IMG/VR virus record: IMGVR_UViG_2695420859_000017
DNA length: 9,321 nucleotides
Direction: 5' to 3' (one strand)
Source of the DNA: a virus
Lineage: Duplodnaviria; Heunggongvirae; Uroviricota; Caudoviricetes
In this document: in pieces, positions 827 through 9,321 of the stretch
Layout: every line of letters starts with the position of its first letter
Position numbering within the stretch: the first letter of the stretch is position 1
The notes under the pieces: generated by a model
What the model was told of the DNA's origin: nothing
Seen by the model: only the letters and a program-made list of their open reading frames with translations
Database searches by the model: none
Program-made: the position numbers and the translations under genes

Positions 827-942
827 GATGCGCATCCTCCGCCATCAGTCCCGGATGGCTTATCGCTGACACAACAGCACCTTAGCGAATCGCGGGGCGC
901 GACTCAGTAGCCTTGCCGTGTATTCATCACGGCGAGGTATTC

Positions 943-2715
943 ATGACCATCACCACAGACACCACTCTTTTACACGACCCGCGTCGTCAGGCGGCGCTGC
1001 TGTACTGGCAGGGGTTTTCCGTGCCGCAGATTGCCGCCATGTTGCAGATGAAACGCCCGACGGTGCAGAGCTGGAAACAGCGCGACGGCTGGGACAGCGT
1101 TGCCCCCATCAGCCGTGTCGAAATGAGCCTGGAAGCGCGGCTGACCCAGCTCATCATCAAACCGCAGAAAACCGGCGGTGACTTCAAGGAAATTGACCTG
1201 CTCGGACGCCAGATTGAACGACTGGCACGGGTAAACCGCTACAGTCAGACCGGCAACGAGGCAGACCTTAATCCGAACGTCGCTAACCGCAACAAAGGCG
1301 AGCGTCGCAAACCGAAAAAGAATTTTTTCAGTGACGAAGCCATCGAAAAGCTGGAGCAGATTTTCTTTGAGCAGTCTTTCGACTATCAGTTGCACTGGTA
1401 TCGCGCCGGGCTTGAGCACCGCATCCGCGATATACTGAAATCCCGCCAGATTGGCGCAACGTTTTATTTTTCCCGCGAGGCGCTGCTGCGCGCCCTGAAA
1501 ACCGGCCATAACCAGATTTTTCTGTCGGCCAGTAAAACGCAGGCGTATGTGTTCCGCGAATACATCATCGCCTTTGCCCGTCTGGTTGACGTTGACCTGA
1601 CCGGTGACCCGATTGTCCTGGGCAATAACGGCGCAAAACTAATTTTTCTCGGCACCAACTCCAACACCGCGCAGAGCCATAACGGCGACCTGTACGTCGA
1701 CGAGATTTTCTGGATCCCGAATTTTCAGGTACTGCGTAAGGTGGCATCAGGTATGGCCTCACAGAGTCACCTGCGCTCGACCTATTTCTCCACCCCGTCC
1801 ACGCTGGCGCACGACGCCTACCCGTTCTGGTCAGGTGAACTGTTCAACCGGGGACGCGCCAGCGCCGCCGAACGCGTGGAAATCGACGTCAGTCATAACG
1901 CCCTTGCCGGTGGTCTTCTCTGTGCGGACGGCCAGTGGCGGCAGATTGTCACCATTGAGGATGCCCTGAAAGGTGGCTGCACACTGTTCGACATTGAGCA
2001 GCTCAAACGTGAAAACAGCGCCGACGATTTTAAAAACCTGTTCATGTGTGAATTTGTTGACGACAAGGCGTCGGTGTTCCCGTTCGAGGAGCTGCAACGC
2101 TGCATGGTCGACACGCTGGAAGAATGGGAAGACTATGCGCCGTTTGCCGCCAATCCGTTCGGCTCACGTCCGGTATGGATTGGTTACGACCCGTCACACC
2201 GTGGCGACAGTGCCGGATGCGTGGTGCTGGCACCGCCGGTGGTGGCCGGTGGCAAATTCAGAATACTTGAGCGTCACCAGTGGAAAGGCATGGACTTTGC
2301 CACCCAGGCTGAATCCATCCGCAAACTCACCGAAAAATACAACGTCGAATACATCGGAATTGATGCCACCGGCCTCGGTGTCGGCGTGTTCCAGCTCGTT
2401 CGCTCGTTCTATCCCGCCGCGCGCGATATCCGCTACACGCCGGAAATGAAAACCGCAATGGTGCTCAAGGCAAAAGACGTTATTCGCCGTGGCTGTCTGG
2501 AATATGACGTCAGCGCCACCGACATCACCAGCTCGTTTATGGCTATCCGCAAGACCATGACCAGCAGCGGACGCAGCGCCACCTATGAGGCCAGCCGCAG
2601 CGAGGAAGCCAGCCACGCCGACCTCGCCTGGGCGACCATGCACGCCCTGTTAAATGAGCCACTCACCGCCGGTATCAGCACCCCGCTGACATCCACCATT
2701 CTGGAGTTTTACTGA
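943..2715 (+). CDS. P: Terminase large (ATPase) subunit GpP
   Basis: 590-codon ORF beginning MTITTDTTLLHDPRRQAALLYWQGFSVPQIAAMLQMKRPTVQSWKQRDGWD, recognised as P2-family GpP. ATG at 943 follows GAGG at 933..936; the ORF-track start at 913 is an upstream TTG and less likely. Stop TGA overlaps the next ATG (ATGA at 2715..2718). Confidence 0.9.
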   Translation: MTITTDTTLLHDPRRQAALLYWQGFSVPQIAAMLQMKRPTVQSWKQRDGWDSVAPISRVEMSLEARLTQLIIKPQKTGGDFKEIDLLGRQIERLARVNRYSQTGNEADLNPNVANRNKGERRKPKKNFFSDEAIEKLEQIFFEQSFDYQLHWYRAGLEHRIRDILKSRQIGATFYFSREALLRALKTGHNQIFLSASKTQAYVFREYIIAFARLVDVDLTGDPIVLGNNGAKLIFLGTNSNTAQSHNGDLYVDEIFWIPNFQVLRKVASGMASQSHLRSTYFSTPSTLAHDAYPFWSGELFNRGRASAAERVEIDVSHNALAGGLLCADGQWRQIVTIEDALKGGCTLFDIEQLKRENSADDFKNLFMCEFVDDKASVFPFEELQRCMVDTLEEWEDYAPFAANPFGSRPVWIGYDPSHRGDSAGCVVLAPPVVAGGKFRILERHQWKGMDFATQAESIRKLTEKYNVEYIGIDATGLGVGVFQLVRSFYPAARDIRYTPEMKTAMVLKAKDVIRRGCLEYDVSATDITSSFMAIRKTMTSSGRSATYEASRSEEASHADLAWATMHALLNEPLTAGISTPLTSTILEFY

Positions 2716-3872
2716 TGAGCAAGAAAAAAGGGAAAACACCGCAACCTGCGGCAAAAACAATGATCGCCAGCGCCCCGAAAATGGAGGCATTCACCTTTGG
2801 CGAGCCGGTACCGGTACTCGACCGCCGTGACATTCTTGATTACGTCGAATGCATCAGTAACGGCAGATGGTATGAGCCACCGGTCAGCTTTACCGGTCTG
2901 GCAAAAAGCCTGCGTGCCGCCGTGCATCACAGCTCCCCGATTTACGTCAAACGCAATATTCTGGCCTCGACATTTATCCCGCATCCGTGGCTTTCACAAC
3001 AGGATTTCAGCCGCTTTGTGCTGGATTTTCTGGTGTTCGGTAATGCGTTTCTGGAAAAGCGTTACAGCACCACCGGTAAGGTCATCAGACTGGAAACCTC
3101 ACCGGCAAAATATACCCGCCGTGGTGTGGAAGAGGATGTTTACTGGTGGGTGCCGTCCTTCAACGAGCCGACAGCCTTCACGCCCGGCTCCGTGTTTCAC
3201 CTGCTGGAGCCGGATATTAATCAGGAGCTGTACGGCCTGCCGGAATATCTCAGCGCCCTTAATTCTGCCTGGCTGAATGAGTCGGCCACGCTGTTTCGCC
3301 GCAAGTATTACGAAAACGGTGCTCATGCCGGATATATCATGTACGTCACTGATGCCGTGCAGGATCGCAACGATATCGAAATGCTTCGCGAAAACATGGT
3401 TAAGTCGAAAGGCCGCAACAACTTTAAAAATCTGTTTCTCTATGCCCCACAGGGGAAAGCCGACGGCATTAAAATTATCCCGCTCAGTGAAGTGGCAACG
3501 AAGGACGATTTTTTTAATATCAAAAAAGCCAGCGCCGCAGACCTGCTGGACGCGCACCGCATCCCTTTTCAGTTGATGGGCGGCAAGCCGGAGAACGTCG
3601 GGTCGCTGGGTGATATTGAGAAAGTGGCAAAGGTCTTTGTACGCCGTGGCTGTCTGGAATATGACGTCAGCGCCACCGACATCACCAGCTCGTTTATGGC
3701 TATCCGCAAGACCATGACCAGCAGCGGACGCAGCGCCACCTATGAGGCCAGCCGCAGCGAGGAAGCCAGCCACGCCGACCTCGCCTGGGCGACCATGCAC
3801 GCCCTGTTAAATGAGCCACTCACCGCCGGTATCAGCACCCCGCTGACATCCACCATTCTGGAGTTTTACTGA
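2715..3872 (+). pseudogene. Chimeric ORF: portal (GpQ) N-terminal ~309 codons fused in frame to a duplicated terminase C-terminal 76 codons
   Basis: Residues 1 to ~309 match the full portal copy at 4916..5935. From about nt 3642 the sequence shows no differences on visual comparison from terminase 2485..2715 (RRGCLEYDVSATDITSSFMAIRK...STILEFY), ending at a second copy of the P-stop/Q-start overlap. Confidence 0.55.
3642..3872 (+). repeat. Duplicate copy of the terminase 3' end (equals 2485..2715)
   Basis: Visual base-by-base comparison of 3642..3872 with 2485..2715 found no differences, including the terminal tactgATGagc junction. Confidence 0.8.
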
Positions 3873-4271
3873 TGAGCAAGAAAAAAGGGAAAACACCGCA
3901 ACCTGCGGCAAAAAAAATGACCGCCAGCACCCCGAAAATGGAGGCATTCACCTTTGGCGAGCCGGTGCCGGTACTCGACCGCCGTGACATTCTGGATTAC
4001 GTCGAATGCATCAGTAACGGCAGATGGTATGAGCCACCGGTCAGCTTTACCGGTCTGGCAAAAAGCCTGCGTGCTGCCGTGCATCACAGCTCACCGATTT
4101 ACGTCAAACGCAATATTCTGGCGTCGACATTTATCCCGCATCCGTGGCTTTCCCAGCAGGATTTCAGCCGCTTTGTGCTGGATTTTCTGGTGTTCGGTAA
4201 TGCGTTTCTGGAAAAGCGTTACAGCACCACCGGTAAAGTTATCAGGCTGGAAACCTCACCGGCAAAATATA
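3872..4271 (+). pseudogene. Portal (GpQ) 5' fragment, ~133 codons, diverged allele
   Basis: Begins MSKKKGKTPQPAAKKMTASTPKMEAF and tracks the portal to ...ETSPAKY. It differs from the other two copies by scattered single-base changes (KTMIASAP becomes KKMTASTP, plus apparently synonymous changes). After ~4271 the portal frame runs into unrelated sequence and stops at 4471. Confidence 0.55.
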
Positions 4272-4916
4272 TCGGTGTTCCCGTTCGAGGAGCTGCAACG
4301 CTGCATGGTCGACACGCTGGAAGAATGGGAAGACTATGCACCCTTTGCCGCCAATCCGTTCGGCTCCCGCCCGGTATGGATTGGTTACGACCCGTCACAC
4401 CGTGGCGACAGCGCCGGATGCGTGGTGCTGGCACCGCCGGTGGTGGCCGGTGGCAAATTCAGAATACTTGAGCGTCACCAGTGGAAAGGCATGGACTTTG
4501 CCACCCAGGCGGAATCCATCCGCAAACTCACCGAAAAATACAACGTCGAATACATCGGTATTGATGCCACCGGCCTCGGTGTCGGCGTGTTCCAGCTCGT
4601 GCGCTCGTTCTATCCTGCCGCGCGCGACATCCGCTACACGCCGGAAATGAAAACCGCAATGGTGCTCAAGGCAAAAGACGTTATCCGCCGTGGCTGTCTG
4701 GAATACGACGTCAGCGCCACCGACATCACCAGCTCGTTTATGGCTATCCGTAAGACCATGACCAGCAGCGGACGCAGCGCCACCTATGAGGCCAGCCGCA
4801 GCGAGGAAGCCAGCCACGCCGACCTCGCCTGGGCGACCATGCACGCCCTGTTAAATGAGCCACTCACCGCCGGTATCAGCACCCCGCTGACATCCACCAT
4901 TCTGGAGTTTTACTGA
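4272..4916 (+). pseudogene. Terminase (GpP) 3' fragment, ~214 codons, diverged allele, out of frame with the preceding portal fragment
   Basis: 4272..4916 corresponds to terminase 2071..2715 (VFPFEELQRCMVDTLEEWEDYAPFAANPF ... STILEFY) with several apparently synonymous single-base differences. It lies in a different frame from the portal fragment upstream; the ORF-track entry 3954..4916 is this frame reading backwards by chance. Confidence 0.55.
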
Positions 4917-5935
4917 TGAGCAAGAAAAAAGGGAAAACACCGCAACCTGCGGCAAAAACAATGATCGCCAGCGCCCCGAAAATGGAGGCATTCACCTTTG
5001 GCGAGCCGGTACCGGTACTCGACCGCCGTGACATTCTTGATTACGTCGAATGCATCAGTAACGGCAGATGGTATGAGCCACCGGTCAGCTTTACCGGTCT
5101 GGCAAAAAGCCTGCGTGCCGCCGTGCATCACAGCTCCCCGATTTACGTCAAACGCAATATTCTGGCCTCGACATTTATCCCGCATCCGTGGCTTTCACAA
5201 CAGGATTTCAGCCGCTTTGTGCTGGATTTTCTGGTGTTCGGTAATGCGTTTCTGGAAAAGCGTTACAGCACCACCGGTAAGGTCATCAGACTGGAAACCT
5301 CACCGGCAAAATATACCCGCCGTGGTGTGGAAGAGGATGTTTACTGGTGGGTGCCGTCCTTCAACGAGCCGACAGCCTTCGCGCCCGGCTCCGTGTTTCA
5401 CCTGCTGGAGCCGGATATTAATCAGGAACTGTACGGCCTGCCGGAATATCTCAGCGCCCTTAACTCTGCCTGGCTGAATGAGTCGGCCACGCTGTTCCGC
5501 CGCAAGTATTACGAAAATGGCGCACATGCCGGATACATCATGTACGTCACTGATGCCGTGCAGGACCGCAACGATATCGAAATGCTTCGCGAAAACATGG
5601 TCAAGTCGAAAGGCCGCAACAACTTTAAAAATCTGTTTCTCTATGCCCCACAGGGAAAAGCCGACGGCATTAAAATTATCCCGCTCAGTGAAGTGGCGAC
5701 GAAGGACGATTTTTTTAATATCAAAAAAGCCAGCGCGGAAGATCTAATGAGTGCCCATCGAGTCCCCCCGCAAATGATGGGGATGATGCCTAATAATGCG
5801 GGAGGATTTGGCGATGTAGTTAAAGCGGCTAAAGTTTTTGTCAGGAATGAGTTAGGGCATCTACAATCGCGAATGAAGGAATTGAACTCATGGATAGGTG
5901 AAACAGTTATAACATTTAACAATTACTCGTTATAA
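4916..5935 (+). CDS. Q: Portal protein GpQ, full length (339 aa), with a diverged AT-rich 3' end
   Basis: ORF starting MSKKKGKTPQPAAKTMIASAPKMEAFTFGEPVPVLDRRDILDYVECISNGRWYEPP, recognised as the P2-family portal. ATG overlaps the stop of the preceding terminase-derived segment. It is the only copy with a portal-type C-terminus and stop. Confidence 0.85.
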   Translation: MSKKKGKTPQPAAKTMIASAPKMEAFTFGEPVPVLDRRDILDYVECISNGRWYEPPVSFTGLAKSLRAAVHHSSPIYVKRNILASTFIPHPWLSQQDFSRFVLDFLVFGNAFLEKRYSTTGKVIRLETSPAKYTRRGVEEDVYWWVPSFNEPTAFAPGSVFHLLEPDINQELYGLPEYLSALNSAWLNESATLFRRKYYENGAHAGYIMYVTDAVQDRNDIEMLRENMVKSKGRNNFKNLFLYAPQGKADGIKIIPLSEVATKDDFFNIKKASAEDLMSAHRVPPQMMGMMPNNAGGFGDVVKAAKVFVRNELGHLQSRMKELNSWIGETVITFNNYSL

Positions 5936-5970: not shown

Positions 5971-6588
5971 TCAAGCAGATAGGCAAAACGTTTCTGTTTG
6001 CCCCAAGTGTTCAAACACAGTAATCGATGTTACTTTTCCGGCACTTATTTTGTTAAGGAACTTCAATATTTGTTGAGGCTCCTCCATGACTGCTGTTTTC
6101 TTGATTATAAATCCCTCAAGATTTTTCAAGCTGTATCGCTGACTTGAGTTCTCAAGAGCAGCAATCATTGCCGAACTGCGCATATCTCTATGTCCACTAG
6201 CTCTACAAACGACAGCATAATTTAAATTAAGCTCTACAAAATTTTGCCTTGTCAACTCTGGAAGGTGTTTACATACAAAATGAAATAAAGTCGTAACACC
6301 TTCATGTATTTTCAACCTTATATCATCCTTTTGTGAACGTCCTTCTTTAAATTCAATGAAGTACAATTTATCTTCATATAAAAATAAAGCATCCGGTGAT
6401 TTTTCTTTAAACTCACGCTTATAAACAGGCGAGCAATTTAACACCGTATCATAGTTAAAGCCCTTCGAATCACAAATAATAAAATTCCGAGCCCCTGCAT
6501 CATTGTAGCTTAATCCGGTTACATCAACCATTGAATCAGGGTATACTTCACACAGTTTTCTAAAAACAAGTTCCTCATTAGAAATCAT
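5971..6588 (-). CDS. Hypothetical 205-aa protein, second gene of the cargo operon; family not recognised; possible PD-(D/E)xK-like nuclease motifs
   Basis: ATG at 6586..6588 is preceded by AGGAG (reverse complement of 6596..6600) at 7-nt spacing and overlaps the upstream gene by 11 nt (ATGATTTCTAA). Strongly AT-rich. Contains FIICD (res 36-40) and LFLYEDK / FIEFK (res 68-81), which could be PD-(D/E)xK motifs II and III; this is inference only. Confidence 0.7.
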   Translation of the reverse strand: MISNEELVFRKLCEVYPDSMVDVTGLSYNDAGARNFIICDSKGFNYDTVLNCSPVYKREFKEKSPDALFLYEDKLYFIEFKEGRSQKDDIRLKIHEGVTTLFHFVCKHLPELTRQNFVELNLNYAVVCRASGHRDMRSSAMIAALENSSQRYSLKNLEGFIIKKTAVMEEPQQILKFLNKISAGKVTSITVFEHLGQTETFCLSA

Positions 6589-7906
6589 CCAAATACTCCT
6601 GATTCAATTCTTTTAATGGTGATGCCAAAAGATTAATTGCATATGCAACATTATCAGTAATATCAACAAAAGATGTAAACTCTTCCCCAGGGAATCGCTC
6701 GCTTATATAGAACCGATTTTCAATCCCAATTTTATCGCTATAATGTTTAAGAGCATCAATAATATACGGGCTATGTGTTGTAATTATTATATCAACCCCC
6801 ATAGACACTAACTCACAAATAATCTCAGCATAGAAAACCTGCCATTTTGGATGTAAGTTCACCTCTGGCTCATCAATAATCAGTAACGAGTTATCTACTG
6901 CTGCCCCGCACTTAACAAGCATATCAAGAATACCTAAAGACTTTATTCCTGACGCAATATTACCCGATGTGACTTTATAGCCTTGCTTCTCTAGAAAAAA
7001 ATCATTCTTTTCAATATCATAAACCACTTCACCACAGAAAGTAGCATTGATTTTGTTAGATATACGCAGTGACTCTTTTAAAAATGAGCCATCATCAAAA
7101 ATATCCGAATGCACAAATAAATTATAAACTGAATCGCTTAATTTTATTGATAGATCTTTCACATGCAATGGAACAGTTAGACGTCCTGATTCACCATTAC
7201 TATCAAATAAAGTTTTAGCAAAACGAACCAAATTATGAAATTGCATAATACTTGGAGAGTCAACATAGGTTGCGTCGACATATCCTAAGCCATCAGTATA
7301 ATCAAATTGTGATATACCATCTTTAGTCCATTTAATATCAATTAACTGACTAACACCATCAACAACTTCCAGAGATGCTTTAACTGGATTTTGATTACCC
7401 TTCTGAATAATTTCGCCTCTAAATTCAGAGTAAAAGGCCTTACGCAGAGCACGGTTGATAGCAGATAGCTCATCATCTGGCTCAAGCATTATATCTCTGA
7501 TTTTTCTTATATCAGAGAGTACAGAATCAGCCATCAATTCTGGAAGAAGCCCTTCCTCAATCAAATTATATAGATAACTCTCTCTCTCAGCCAAAGTTTT
7601 AGAGATATCTATTTTTAGAGAGGCATAAAACTTTCTTGGATTGAATAACTCTCTAATTTCCGGCGTAGCAGCAATATTAATCCTCCTACGCAGATTAAAA
7701 TATATTTTCTCTACGATAGATGTAATTCTATCCTCTTTGTCTTCTTCTAAATCCTCTTGATAACGAGATATCGCCTTTACCATTGAAAACAATATTTTCC
7801 CTACGGTACTCTTCCCCGTATCATTTTCACCAGTTATGACAGTTAAACCACCAACTGAAACATCAGCTTCTGCAATAGTTCCAAAATTATTAATTTTTAT
7901 ACGCAT
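6578..7906 (-). CDS. OLD/ABC-family (AAA_15/AAA_21-like) ATPase, 442 aa, with no Toprim or other nuclease domain
   Basis: N-terminal Walker A GENDTGKST (nt 7805..7831), C-terminal Walker B LLIIDEPE (nt 6863..6886) and H-loop TTHSP (nt 6767..6781), with ~300 residues between the Walker motifs. This layout is typical of OLD/GajA/AriA/PtuA-type ATPases. Spot counts of 60-nt lines give roughly 27-30% GC against about 60% in the structural genes. Confidence 0.8.
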   Translation of the reverse strand: MRIKINNFGTIAEADVSVGGLTVITGENDTGKSTVGKILFSMVKAISRYQEDLEEDKEDRITSIVEKIYFNLRRRINIAATPEIRELFNPRKFYASLKIDISKTLAERESYLYNLIEEGLLPELMADSVLSDIRKIRDIMLEPDDELSAINRALRKAFYSEFRGEIIQKGNQNPVKASLEVVDGVSQLIDIKWTKDGISQFDYTDGLGYVDATYVDSPSIMQFHNLVRFAKTLFDSNGESGRLTVPLHVKDLSIKLSDSVYNLFVHSDIFDDGSFLKESLRISNKINATFCGEVVYDIEKNDFFLEKQGYKVTSGNIASGIKSLGILDMLVKCGAAVDNSLLIIDEPEVNLHPKWQVFYAEIICELVSMGVDIIITTHSPYIIDALKHYSDKIGIENRFYISERFPGEEFTSFVDITDNVAYAINLLASPLKELNQEYLDDF

Positions 7907-7999: not shown

Positions 8000-8018
8000 G
8001 TGCTTTCCCCGCCTCGCC
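8000..8018 (-). other. cos: cos site: 19-nt cohesive-end sequence identical to P2 (GGCGAGGCGGGGAAAGCAC on the minus strand)
   Basis: Reverse complement of 8000..8018 is GGCGAGGCGGGGAAAGCAC, followed by CTGCGCGC, matching my recollection of the P2 left end. It sits in a GC-rich block, in the expected neighbourhood of the portal gene. Confidence 0.75.
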
Positions 8019-8141: not shown

Positions 8142-8302
8142 ATAGCTTTTTAAGTACGCCATACCGCAACTGTACATTTTTAAGCAATTGGCAACTTTAA
8201 AAAATTTACATTGCTTTCAAGACCTTATCATCCGTAGTCTCTGTTTTTTACTTTGAGCTACATCAATAAAATCTCAAACATGTTTAATGCAAAGCCCTTG
8301 TT

Positions 8303-8356
8303 ACACAACATAGAATGTATGTCTAGAAACAACGACATACTATATGTTGTGTTTTT
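8303..8356 (+). other. Long imperfect hairpin (arms ACACAACATAGAATGTATGTC / GACATACTATATGTTGTGT, 10-nt loop) followed by a T-run; terminator-like or sRNA 3' end
   Basis: Seen directly: 10-bp and 7-bp perfect stem segments separated by a small internal loop, then TTTTT at 8352..8356. An A-tract is lacking on the other side, so orientation is plus. Confidence 0.4.
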
Positions 8357-8418
8357 CCGGCTCTCTGTTCGGTGATATGCCAAATCACTTTGCGTTTAAA
8401 CAGAGCATTATTTCAGGG

Positions 8419-8433
8419 CAAGACTTCGCTCAA
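8419..8433 (+). repeat. 15-bp direct repeat CAAGACTTCGCTCAA, copy 1
   Basis: Exact 15-mer found again at 8683..8697; the two copies bracket the small ORF and its terminator. Confidence 0.5.
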
Positions 8434-8496
8434 AAGTCATTCCACCTAAGAAGCGCATATACCGGTGGAAGTTGCCCTCTACTTACAGGAGGCAAT

Positions 8497-8610
8497 ATGA
8501 AGAAATGCTATTACTGCATTCTCGTTCTGGCCCTCTTTGGCTATCCAAACGGTAGTCCGAGTGGTTTGTCAGTAAACGTCAGTAATATCAATGTCAGCAT
8601 TATGCTTTAA
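8497..8610 (+). CDS. Small hydrophobic peptide, 37 aa (MKKCYYCILVLALFGYPNGSPSGLSVNVSNINVSIML); function unknown
   Basis: ATG at 8497 is preceded by a consensus AGGAGG at 8487..8492 (4-nt spacing). Stop at 8608..8610 is followed 13 nt later by a strong intrinsic terminator. The N-terminus is KK followed by a ~13-residue hydrophobic stretch. Short length keeps confidence low. Confidence 0.35.
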   Translation: MKKCYYCILVLALFGYPNGSPSGLSVNVSNINVSIML

Positions 8611-8622
8611 TATGCTTCAAAC

Positions 8623-8652
8623 AAAAAAACCACCTGCCAGGGTGGTTTTTTT
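8623..8652. terminator. Rho-independent terminator, bidirectional form (AAAAAAACCACC-TGCCAG-GGTGGTTTTTTT)
   Basis: Seen directly: perfect GC-containing stem with a 6-nt loop, A-tract upstream and T7 downstream. Confidence 0.8.
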
Positions 8653-8682
8653 GCGCCCATCATCAATACGATGAAAGACTGA

Positions 8683-8697
8683 CAAGACTTCGCTCAA
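8683..8697 (+). repeat. 15-bp direct repeat CAAGACTTCGCTCAA, copy 2
   Basis: Identical to 8419..8433; AAGACT-like motifs also occur at 8675..8680 and 8696..8700. Confidence 0.5.
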
Positions 8698-8912
8698 GAC
8701 GAATTATGCGTCGACATAAGGTTACCCGCAATGATTTTATTAGACTAAATGGATGGCCTTTTATGACCCGGATCAAACGGCTGTCCTTACCGACATGCTA
8801 GTCACTCAATAGCATTTAGCCTTCTAATTCAGCATGCTATTGACCTTCTGCTGCCCCATAACTGCTCCGCATAAGCCATTCAATGCCATATCAAATCACG
8901 TTGTGTTTTTAC

Positions 8913-9321
8913 TCAAATGGGTAACGAGAACCCCGGCCACTCATCAGCAACCGGATACGTGAATTTTTTCCCGTCATAATTTACGGTCGCGCCACGCGCC
9001 AGCGCCTCAAGCTCCCATCGTTGCGGCCTGATACCGTTCTGAGCGAGGTCAACGCGGATACGGGTAATTTGCAATCGTTCAGACCTGGTCAGTCTGGCAG
9101 ATGGTGCAATTTCATGCGGTTTTAACGGGATTCCGTTTCTTTGCTGACGATTTGGTGTTCTCAGTCCGTGTTTTAATGCGCCCCTGAGCACCATCACTAC
9201 CTCCGGGTCACTCCATTCGATAACACCGTCATCTACCAGATTAAGCACTGCTGCGGCGTGCTCAGAAGGTGTGGGAGCCGGTAACGAAGTATCACCACCG
9301 GTGAGCTTTCCACAGTTATTG
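8913..9321 (-). CDS. Phage protein, 3' portion only (gene starts beyond the window end); probably the last gene of the early/replication operon
   Basis: The minus-strand frame is open from the window edge (…TGGDTSLPAPTPSEHAAAVLNLVDDGVIEWSDPEV…) to TGA at 8913..8915. The ORF-track start at 9248 is an internal GTG. GC content is backbone-like. Product assignment is positional inference only. Confidence 0.55.
   Translation of the reverse strand, partial: NNCGKLTGGDTSLPAPTPSEHAAAVLNLVDDGVIEWSDPEVVMVLRGALKHGLRTPNRQQRNGIPLKPHEIAPSARLTRSERLQITRIRVDLAQNGIRPQRWELEALARGATVNYDGKKFTYPVADEWPGFSLPI

Follow-up and report, generated by a model that had tools for sequence, protein, structure and literature searches.

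Direct repeats around a small open reading frame of a P2-like prophage: a candidate type I toxin-antitoxin-like module

Two exact copies of the 15-nt sequence CAAGACTTCGCTCAA are found on the plus strand of a P2-like (Peduovirus) prophage of Escherichia coli (IMG/VR record IMGVR_UViG_2695420859_000017, 9,321 nt; this complete stretch of DNA is referred to as the window). Copy 1 is at 8419-8433 and copy 2 at 8683-8697. Between them are an open reading frame (ORF) of 37 codons and an intrinsic terminator. This raises the question of why such a small gene is enclosed by a direct repeat. A previous reading of the letters alone (the sequence-only reading) assumed that the repeats bracket a micro-cassette. 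According to the analysis reported here, the two copies are most likely the matching halves of an antisense pair, rather than insertion scars. The best reading of the locus is a small membrane-peptide gene which is controlled by a small RNA (sRNA), is type I toxin-antitoxin-like, and would represent a new family.

The sequence-only reading had considered a chance occurrence of the pair unlikely, and this holds: the mean number of matches in dinucleotide-preserving shuffles was 0.01, and none of 200 shuffles contained two copies. A third copy was not found in the window at up to two mismatches. The copies are spaced by ~264 bp in sequences of the P2 lineage (with one locus a base shorter) and by 264-272 bp in other lineages. 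Homologues retain the ORF, and all relatives examined have a conserved repeat pair, so that the grounds for refutation named in the sequence-only reading were not encountered.

Two convergent genes and a shared terminator

The region from about 8200 to 8731 (~530 bp) is best explained as a compact module of two convergent genes with a common bidirectional terminator. Its proposed main parts are as follows.

8200-8322 (homology ~8200-8352), plus strand: nrdDG-like promoter region, which probably drives the mRNA of the small ORF
8417-8432, plus strand: target site in the mRNA leader, which includes copy 1 (8419-8433) and is complementary to the predicted sRNA 5' end
8497-8610, plus strand: 37-codon ORF (ATG at 8497, stop codon at 8608-8610) with the product MKKCYYCILVLALFGYPNGSPSGLSVNVSNINVSIML
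8623-8652, both strands: bidirectional intrinsic terminator (A7 at 8623-8629, stem-loop at 8630-8645, T7 at 8646-8652)
8621-8696, minus strand: predicted sRNA of ~75 nt, consisting of a 5' seed, a small variable hairpin and the terminator
8681-8697, minus strand: sRNA seed, which includes copy 2 (8683-8697)
8703-8731, minus strand: predicted sigma-70 promoter of the sRNA (-35 TTGCGG at 8731-8726, a 17-nt spacer, -10 CATAAT at 8708-8703)

On the plus strand, the nrdDG-type promoter would give rise to an mRNA with a predicted start near 8323 (by analogy with nrdD) and a leader (5' untranslated region) of ~174 nt ahead of the peptide-coding ORF. On the minus strand, the TTGCGG-17-CATAAT promoter would direct synthesis of the ~75-nt sRNA, which would start at ~8694-8696, where the repeat is read in antisense, and would run to the terminator common to both genes. 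Its first 16 nt would be the reverse complement of copy 2. Because the two copies are read from opposite strands, a direct repeat in the DNA yields perfect complementarity between the RNAs, and the sRNA 5' end would match copy 1 in the leader, 78 nt upstream of the ATG. Such pairing would prevent synthesis of the peptide. Two routes are conceivable by analogy with tisB/istR-1 and zorO/orzO: the sRNA may block the ribosome standby (loading) region upstream of a sequestered Shine-Dalgarno (SD) sequence, or the sRNA-leader duplex may be a substrate of RNase III. The peptide would insert into the inner membrane and would be harmful once the sRNA falls. The module would then be a type I toxin-antitoxin-like device for addiction or defence. 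The two predicted RNAs are fully complementary also across the terminator hairpin. The transcript of gene A (see below) heads through the sRNA gene toward the shared terminator; when the prophage grows lytically, transcription reading through from gene A would be an additional source of antisense RNA.

Diverged homologues allow this arrangement to be assessed. The first diverged locus was a 79%-identical fragment on a Klebsiella-type plasmid, encountered with a junction query for an empty site. This locus has TGGCAAGACTTCGCTCA twice, a GGAGG, followed by a 37-codon ORF (MNRLCLCILVLTLFGYPVGSQSGWSVNVSHINVNISL), and an identical terminator. Further lineages are represented by Kluyvera georgiana, Leclercia tamurae, a plasmid of Leclercia adecarboxylata, and IncF plasmids of Citrobacter and Salmonella. 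The diverged homologues hold the module layout while their flanks diverge. The following versions of the repeat are found.

Window clade (P2): CAAGACTTCGCTCAA, 15 nt common to both copies
Z142 clade (P2): GCAAGACTTCGCTC, 14 nt common to both copies; next to copy 2, AG replaces GA, so that a G.U and a G-C pair trade places
L090 clade (P2): GCAAGACTTCGCT, 13 nt common to both copies
Klebsiella plasmids: TGGCAAGACTTCGCTCA, 17 nt, in both copies
Kluyvera: Klebsiella-like, but with T in copy 1 versus C in copy 2, which gives a U.G pair, the RNA-compatible direction
Leclercia, Citrobacter and Salmonella: (TG)GTAAGGCTTTGCTCA twice, with three substitutions, each in both copies

The predicted duplex between sRNA and leader has 16 contiguous pairs in the window, and it was the top-ranked site in all 10 lineages tested. 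The best duplex of the sRNA core with the mRNA is always anchored by sRNA nt 1-17 and the repeat copy in the leader. The distance from target to ATG is 77-79 nt in 12 of 12 lineages (78 nt in the window). When the 17-pair intermolecular helix was evaluated for nine sequences, 94.8% of the cells were paired, versus 31-41% with the partner slid by 1-3 columns, and the covariation score of the helix was reached by none of 500 shuffles. In three pairs, both partners have changed (C-G to U-A, A-U to G-C, and C-G to U-A); single-copy changes in the repeats yield G.U pairs. At the sequence level, the locus thus has two hallmarks of type I systems: a gene for a small (<60 aa) hydrophobic protein and, next to it, a predicted gene for an antisense RNA, which has a complementarity of 16-17 bp with compensatory changes and a conserved promoter, seed and terminator. 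We consider it likely on these grounds that the pairing module of sRNA and mRNA is real.

The terminator is shared by both genes. Its arms (8622-8634 and 8641-8653, 13 nt each) are 100% complementary. Together with the flanking A7 and T7 runs, this means that it would stop transcription from either side. The stem-loop and the T-run are invariant in 12 of 12 lineages, with the A-run being one base shorter in pJM45, while the neighbouring sequence diverges. A simple terminator scan did not pick up this element. The sequence-only reading was right in calling it a strong intrinsic terminator, but its bidirectional nature had been missed. Likewise, the parts recognized at that time (ORF, SD, terminator and repeats) are all confirmed, while the sRNA gene on the minus strand and the nrdD-type promoter had been overlooked.

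The predicted sRNA has a folding energy of -29.5 kcal/mol (z = -3.85). Its three-part architecture is conserved; the sequence of the middle hairpin differs in each lineage, with three compensatory pairs. The seed core is invariant and the bases right beside the seed vary. The -10 element (CATAAT) is invariant in 12 of 12 lineages, and its distance to the seed (TGAGC) is always 6 nt. The -35 element is TTGCG[G/A] at a spacing of 17 nt, or TTGCCT or TTGCGT at 18 nt in the Leclercia/Citrobacter/Salmonella group; the sequence of the spacer has diverged among lineages. Between the P2 and Klebsiella versions, the DNA from terminator to seed is non-homologous and unalignable, and yet both promoter elements (-10 and -35) and the seed are retained together with their spacings. 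In an Rfam search (E <= 1 for the window; gathering score for three related loci), the only matches were sub-threshold ones to RNAI and the Phe leader, which are driven by the terminator. The RNAI matches are explained by the ColE1-type origin of Tatumella having the same terminator. None of the Rfam antitoxin families matched in the cassette.

Two observations on the sRNA side are added. A promoter-like sequence on the plus strand (CTGACA-17-AATTAT, 8679-8707) was considered and rejected, since its -35 is not conserved in relatives. A metagenome-assembled genome (MAG) of Enterobacter (CAUQTV010000013.1, ~3330-3450) has an orphan sRNA gene with the seed CTGGTAAGGCTTTGCTC, a CATAAT promoter and a terminator. 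No repeat copy 1 is present there within 330 nt upstream of the terminator; this locus was not searched for the cassette ORF. The orphan could be a retained antitoxin, or the toxin side could have been replaced.

The small ORF, its leader and its promoter

The sequence-only reading described a consensus SD in front of a 37-residue peptide with a KK start and hydrophobic character, and this description is accurate apart from one small coordinate correction (the SD, AGGAGG, is at 8487-8492, ahead of the ATG at 8497). The ORF is intact in all 25 distinct P2-type sequences that span it completely, with an unchanged start, frame and length and with TAA or TAG as the stop codon; two further P2-type sequences end within the ORF and are outside this count. 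Of its 13 variable sites, 10 fall on codon position 3 and none on position 2 (binomial p = 0.0016). This codon-position bias is absent from four flanking control segments. The sequence comparisons thus support the view that the 37-codon ORF behaves as a real, conserved small-protein gene.

The peptide MKKCYYCILVLALFGYPNGSPSGLSVNVSNINVSIML consists of the KK start, a hydrophobic segment of 13 residues, and an uncharged tail in which polar and hydrophobic residues alternate. Homologous peptides from five further lineages have 37-39 residues and are 14-68% identical to that of the window. The peptides of all lineages have in common a basic N-terminus, a C-x-C motif, a hydrophobic core and the alternating polar/hydrophobic tail. 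Indels in the ORF are whole codons, and SD and stop are retained in all lineages. An earlier suggestion that the ORF is the remnant of a signal peptide from a longer secreted protein is rejected, because a length of 37-39 codons, the SD, the start and the stop are kept even in lineages where the peptides are only 14-24% identical to that of the window. An extended ORF of 88 codons' product length (88 aa) was also discarded, as it is not conserved and relatives have a TAG at 8434.

E. coli W (ATCC 9637) has an identical locus (NC_017635.1, ~2331108-2331659), where the peptide is on record as a hypothetical protein, ECW_m2278; at least 1000 contigs encode it. At the loci seen in E. coli genomes or plasmid records, a PGAP annotation of the ORF was never present. 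Five peptide variants had no significant match in Pfam, PHROGs, NCBIfam or PADLOC. According to protein and RNA models, there is no membership in the Hok/Gef, Ldr, TisB, Ibs, ShoB, DinQ or ZorO toxin families. A protein homology search with the 88-aa extended ORF retrieved only the same clusters, the 37-aa sequence being too short as a query. The sequence-only reading had proposed a small membrane-active peptide or a toxin. This is still the best reading; toxicity is something that we infer, and for the peptide actually being a toxin we regard the chances as evenly balanced.

The leader and the region upstream of it contain the following elements, all on the plus strand.

8253-8266, plus strand: FNR-site-like TTGAG-CTAC-ATCAA, identical in the nrdD upstream DNA and TTGTT-N4-ATCAA in the plasmid lineages
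8284-8297, plus strand: second, weaker FNR-like sequence TTAAT-GCAA-AGCCC, which aligns with TTGAT-GCAA-AGCAC of nrdD
8303-8318, plus strand: degenerate NrdR partner box ACACAACATAGAATGT (4 of 6 positions), with an 18-bp linker
8311-8316, plus strand: predicted -10 of the mRNA, TAGAAT, the aligned sequence in nrdD and in the other lineages being TAAAAT
8337-8352, plus strand: NrdR-box-like ATACTATATGTTGTGT, with 6 of 6 conserved positions (C4 A6 A8 T9 T11 G13)
8440-8470, plus strand: leader hairpin UUCCACC...GGUGGAA, with a compensatory change of A8444-U8466 to G-C between P2 clades
8472-8495, plus strand: predicted SD-sequestering hairpin, in which UUGCCCUCU pairs with AGGAGGCAA; it is part of the minimum-energy structure

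The nrdDG operon of E. coli codes for the anaerobic ribonucleotide reductase, and its promoter is activated by FNR and repressed by NrdR. By BLAST, positions 8228-8295 of the window are 88% identical over 68 nt to the treC-nrdD intergenic region of cassette-free E. coli chromosomes. In a multiple alignment of the nrdD upstream region with eight cassette lineages, the sequences are collinear all the way from TTTACA to TAAAATGC (TA(A/G)AATGC), with both FNR-like sites in between. The FNR consensus is TTGAT-N4-ATCAA, and the second FNR-like site is TTGAT-GCAA-ATCAC in plasmids of the Leclercia/Citrobacter/Salmonella group (group B). The two sites are 31 bp apart (centre to centre), and the -10 follows at a distance of 20.5 bp; nrdD has the same two values. 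The FNR sites of nrdD reportedly lie at about -64.5 and -33.5.

An NrdR box is defined by the positions C4 A6 A8 T9 T11 G13, with a linker of 15-16 bp between boxes (PMC13584703). The linker is 16 bp in the Z142 clade, and the Leclercia lineage has boxes with 6 of 6 and 5 of 6 positions and a 15-bp linker, as in nrdD. The nrdD segment aligned here is the 57-bp probe that was shown to bind NrdR (PMC12176259). Judged from these sequences, control by NrdR is plausible for the family and uncertain in the lineage of the window. It is doubtful in the P2 lineage because of an 11-nt insertion and the degenerate box 1.

Some other candidates in this region were evaluated. A P2 late (Ogr-type) promoter (TGT-N12-ACA, 8320-8337) was rejected, as it is not conserved in relatives. 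The hairpin at 8303-8352 was rejected as a terminator for the plus strand because its T-run is not conserved; the inverted repeat is better explained as remnants of NrdR boxes. A second plus-strand promoter just upstream of copy 1 (A[T/G]CACT-16/17-CATTAT) is a possibility; its position is conserved and it is weak. The hexamer TTTACA (8205-8210), which precedes the first FNR-like site by ~45 nt, is invariant among all cassette lineages and is also found in the upstream DNA of nrdD. It may serve as a binding site or belong to a second promoter.

It is tempting to speculate that a type I toxin has become wired to the nucleotide and oxygen status of the cell by a captured nrdDG promoter, with activation by FNR and repression by NrdR. 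This more specific version is unlikely. If it were true, the module would fire when deoxynucleotide (dNTP) pools or respiration are disturbed, e.g., by an infecting phage or upon loss of the element. It would then be an abortive-infection or addiction device that senses the metabolic state, both on resistance plasmids of Klebsiella and in the defence hotspot of P2.

Alternative explanations and known systems

The repeats might be explained without invoking RNA. They could be insertion scars (a target-site duplication or att-like sequences) that bracket a mobile moron made up of the ORF and the terminator. This would fit with an exact 15-bp direct repeat around just these two elements and with the location in a known hotspot of gene exchange (PMC9122126). 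However, a synthetic junction query did not find a single-copy empty site in 5,426 E. coli genomes; it returned two-piece matches spanning ~551 bp in ~150 E. coli genomes and otherwise partial matches, on two plasmids. The conserved unit (~8200-8731) exceeds both repeats, with the sRNA promoter being outside copy 2 and the nrdD-like promoter upstream of copy 1. The spacing of ~264-272 bp and the lack of terminal inverted repeats, none of which were found around the module, also speak against scars, and scars are not expected to change jointly in both copies at three positions. An origin of the repeats as scars is extremely improbable, and the micro-cassette proposed earlier, with the repeats as its borders, is not supported. 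The copies could also be sites for one DNA-binding protein, e.g., a repressor that acts at both promoters. They are identical and directly oriented, and copy 2 is just downstream of the predicted -10 of the sRNA, a typical operator position. But no regulator gene accompanies the cassette across its prophage and plasmid contexts, the repeat is without internal dyad symmetry, and the two seed variants, which differ at three positions, would each require a co-evolved protein. Moreover, the differences that are tolerated give G.U pairs at the RNA level, in a strand-specific direction. We consider protein sites to be very unlikely, although a little less so than scars.

Two further alternatives accept the pairing of the RNAs and concern the ORF. 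The plus-strand transcript may be non-coding and the ORF fortuitous, so that the locus would be a pair of sRNA and anti-sRNA, or a sponge, with targets elsewhere. Within P2 clades, the leader is indeed as conserved as the ORF (the density of variable sites is ~11-12% in both), the Enterobacter MAG has an orphan sRNA gene, and PGAP never annotated the ORF. This contrasts with the third-position bias of the variable sites (10 of 13, none at position 2), with the retention of ORF length, SD, start, stop and whole-codon indels where the peptides are highly diverged, and with the peptide pattern described above being kept, from the basic N-terminus to the alternating tail. A non-coding transcript is therefore unlikely. 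A higher, but still low, probability is attributed to the ORF being a benign small membrane protein (a factor for exclusion, stress or anaerobiosis) which is under sRNA control without forming a toxin-antitoxin pair. Control of a small protein by an sRNA is supported by all sequence features, but toxicity is demonstrated by none of them; the peptide does not resemble the classical type I toxins; and an nrdD-type promoter suggests conditional, physiological expression. On the other side, a small hydrophobic ORF that is tightly coupled to a dedicated antisense RNA is typical of type I systems (PMC7472228, PMC7667032), as are the carriage on conjugative plasmids and an orphan sRNA that resembles an antitoxin.

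Several points weigh against a type I toxin-antitoxin-like module, which is nevertheless the preferred reading. Both promoters are at or below the threshold of a consensus scan (the sRNA promoter has 8 of 12 positions in the window). The peptide is atypical of type I toxins, with a hydrophobic stretch of only ~13 residues and an uncharged, beta-like tail, and it fits no toxin family according to protein family models. All three compensatory changes separate only two seed types and may thus go back to a small number of events in evolution; gene conversion from one copy to the other is a conceivable source of the joint changes. The structure of the leader is weakly conserved across all lineages (the helix at 8440-8470 is weakly recovered). 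The SD is predicted to be largely inaccessible (unpaired probability of 0.08 for 8487-8492 upon folding), and a structural switch, in which pairing frees an anti-SD, was dropped because blocking of the target left the predicted SD accessibility unchanged. As to how pairing 78 nt upstream of the ATG would cause repression, the folding models provide no more than indirect hints. Finally, pKPN3 from Klebsiella pneumoniae MGH 78578, the strain with dRNA-seq/RIL-seq, is devoid of the cassette over its whole sequence.

The par system of the Enterococcus faecalis plasmid pAD1 (with Fst mRNA RNA I and antitoxin RNA II) has convergent promoters, a common bidirectional terminator, and direct repeats that are transcribed in opposite directions, and RNA pairing begins at the terminator hairpin (PMC7472228). 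The module resembles par(pAD1) in its convergent promoters, the shared terminator and the oppositely read repeats. Further similarities are complementary 5' regions and an SD within an intramolecular stem-loop, both of them predicted for the module, as well as carriage on mobile elements and a small peptide (33 residues in par, 37 here). In contrast to par(pAD1), there is only one repeat pair (versus DRa and DRb), the target is 77-79 nt upstream of the ATG (versus over the initiation region), and the predicted sRNA has ~75 nt (versus ~40 nt). The peptide has an uncharged tail (SGLSVNVSNINVSIML) in place of a charged one and is devoid of PXXXG and of the Fst/Ldr motif. Hosts are Enterobacterales here and Firmicutes there, and there is no sequence homology. 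As judged from sequence, the module matches the regulatory layout of par(pAD1) but fails the membership tests for the par/Fst family.

In enterobacteria, the closest functional analogue is TimP/TimR (ryfA) from Salmonella, which codes for a peptide of 38 residues and an sRNA with a 5' region that is complementary to the mRNA leader (PMC7667032). Shared with the module are an N-terminal, signal-like hydrophobic segment and a short contiguous complementarity to the leader (18 nt in TimR); also, from species to species the target keeps its position relative to the ORF (PMC7667032). TimP and TimR are, however, divergent neighbours and chromosomal, whereas the genes of the module are convergent, share a terminator and are phage- or plasmid-borne. 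The Rfam family RF00126 (RyfA, timP RNA) had no match in the window at E <= 1. The E. coli pairs tisB/istR-1, zorO/orzO, dinQ/agrB and shoB/ohsC have a short perfect complementarity far upstream of the SD and a long leader (partly PMC7667032), and also code for a small hydrophobic peptide. They differ by divergent transcription and by control through LexA or otherwise, and their RNAs and peptides are unrelated to those of the module. With the E. coli nrdDG promoter, the module shares upstream homology and the same geometry of two FNR-like sites and the -10, but its copy drives the 37-codon ORF and not nrdDG.

A full-text literature search had no relevant match for the repeat, seed or peptide strings. 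Two studies of the P2 hotspot (including PMC9122126) were built on annotated proteins, and the module is unmentioned in them. With the ORF left blank by PGAP, it is invisible to standard annotation. If confirmed, the module would represent a new enterobacterial family of type I toxin-antitoxin-like systems, with a peptide and an RNA outside the described families. The par(pAD1) layout, which is known from Firmicutes, would then exist also in mobile elements of Gram-negative bacteria. Such a module could contribute to the maintenance of prophages and plasmids or to phage exclusion. The borrowed nrdDG promoter suggests a testable link from anaerobiosis and nucleotide sensing to a toxin-like gene. 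Short direct repeats that flank a bidirectional terminator are a signature which may be mined for more sense/antisense modules.

Distribution, the P2 hotspot and neighbouring features

The cassette is present in 158 of 5,426 complete E. coli genomes, and in the loci examined it is always located in a P2-like prophage. Among 411 plasmid records with the cassette, 392 are from Klebsiella and 350 were typed as conjugative. This distribution fits a selfish or addiction-type module. One plasmid, pJ53-KPC_Vir, also carries a dinQ/agrB type I locus (2881-3355; dinQ is annotated, and Rfam AgrB matches with 45 bits) ~1 kb from the cassette, amid insertion sequence (IS) elements.

In the prophage, the locus is positioned between the following features.

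8000-8018, minus strand: P2 cos cohesive end GGCGAGGCGGGGAAAGCAC, 19 nt, an exact match to the sequence in PMC3931495
8913-9321, minus strand: 3' end of the replication endonuclease gene A, with a reading frame that stays open as far as the window end; the gene is annotated in an identical prophage of E. coli 600468

The sequence-only reading placed the locus on the side of cos where P2 has tin and old, and this is correct. In P2, the gpA-gpQ hotspot carries old and tin and is known for gene exchange (PMC9122126). The module is accessory cargo of this hotspot, and its presence varies from one P2-like phage to another. The cassette is absent from reference P2 at the BLAST level. In E. coli 600468, where the locus is identical, a terminase gene, a portal gene and two cargo genes are followed by ~1 kb of unannotated sequence and by gene A on the opposite strand. 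The position of other cargo varies: it is between Q and cos in the window, and strains 439 and Z142 have it between cos and 8149. In strain EC12, nothing but cos and the cassette region is present from Q to A. The variable cargo positions and the situation in EC12 indicate that the region ~8150-8912 behaves as a unit of its own.

At 9035-9050, within gene A, the repeat occurs a third time, inverted and imperfect. The gene A mRNA would carry GACCUCGCUCA, which is complementary to the sRNA seed at 10 of 11 positions; the rough chance expectation for this is ~0.15, so the match may mean nothing. Many complete E. coli chromosomes start exactly at P2 gene A (2277 nt), and the cassette region is then found at 2290-3040. 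It appears that such assemblies were rotated to the prophage replication gene, which was mistaken for the chromosomal start gene.

In the part of the window that precedes cos, the junction of terminase and portal genes is present three times (2469-4969, within 913-5935). Copies of 300 nt start at 2469, 3626 and 4670 (spacings of 1157 and 1044) and are 97-99% identical. The triplication yields chimeric ORFs, which combine a portal N-terminus with a terminase C-terminus, ahead of the intact portal gene (4916-5935). In E. coli 600468, whose prophage is otherwise identical, there is a single terminase gene and a single portal gene. Either this is a misassembly of mixed P2-like prophages or it is a real tandem rearrangement.

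The cargo between portal gene and cos (5971-7906, minus strand) consists of a gene for a 442-residue ATPase of the AAA_15/AAA_21 type and an overlapping gene for a 205-residue protein without family assignment. The best PADLOC matches of the ATPase are HEC-02A, PD-T4-4_A and AriA-like. Together, the two proteins look like a candidate two-gene anti-phage system.

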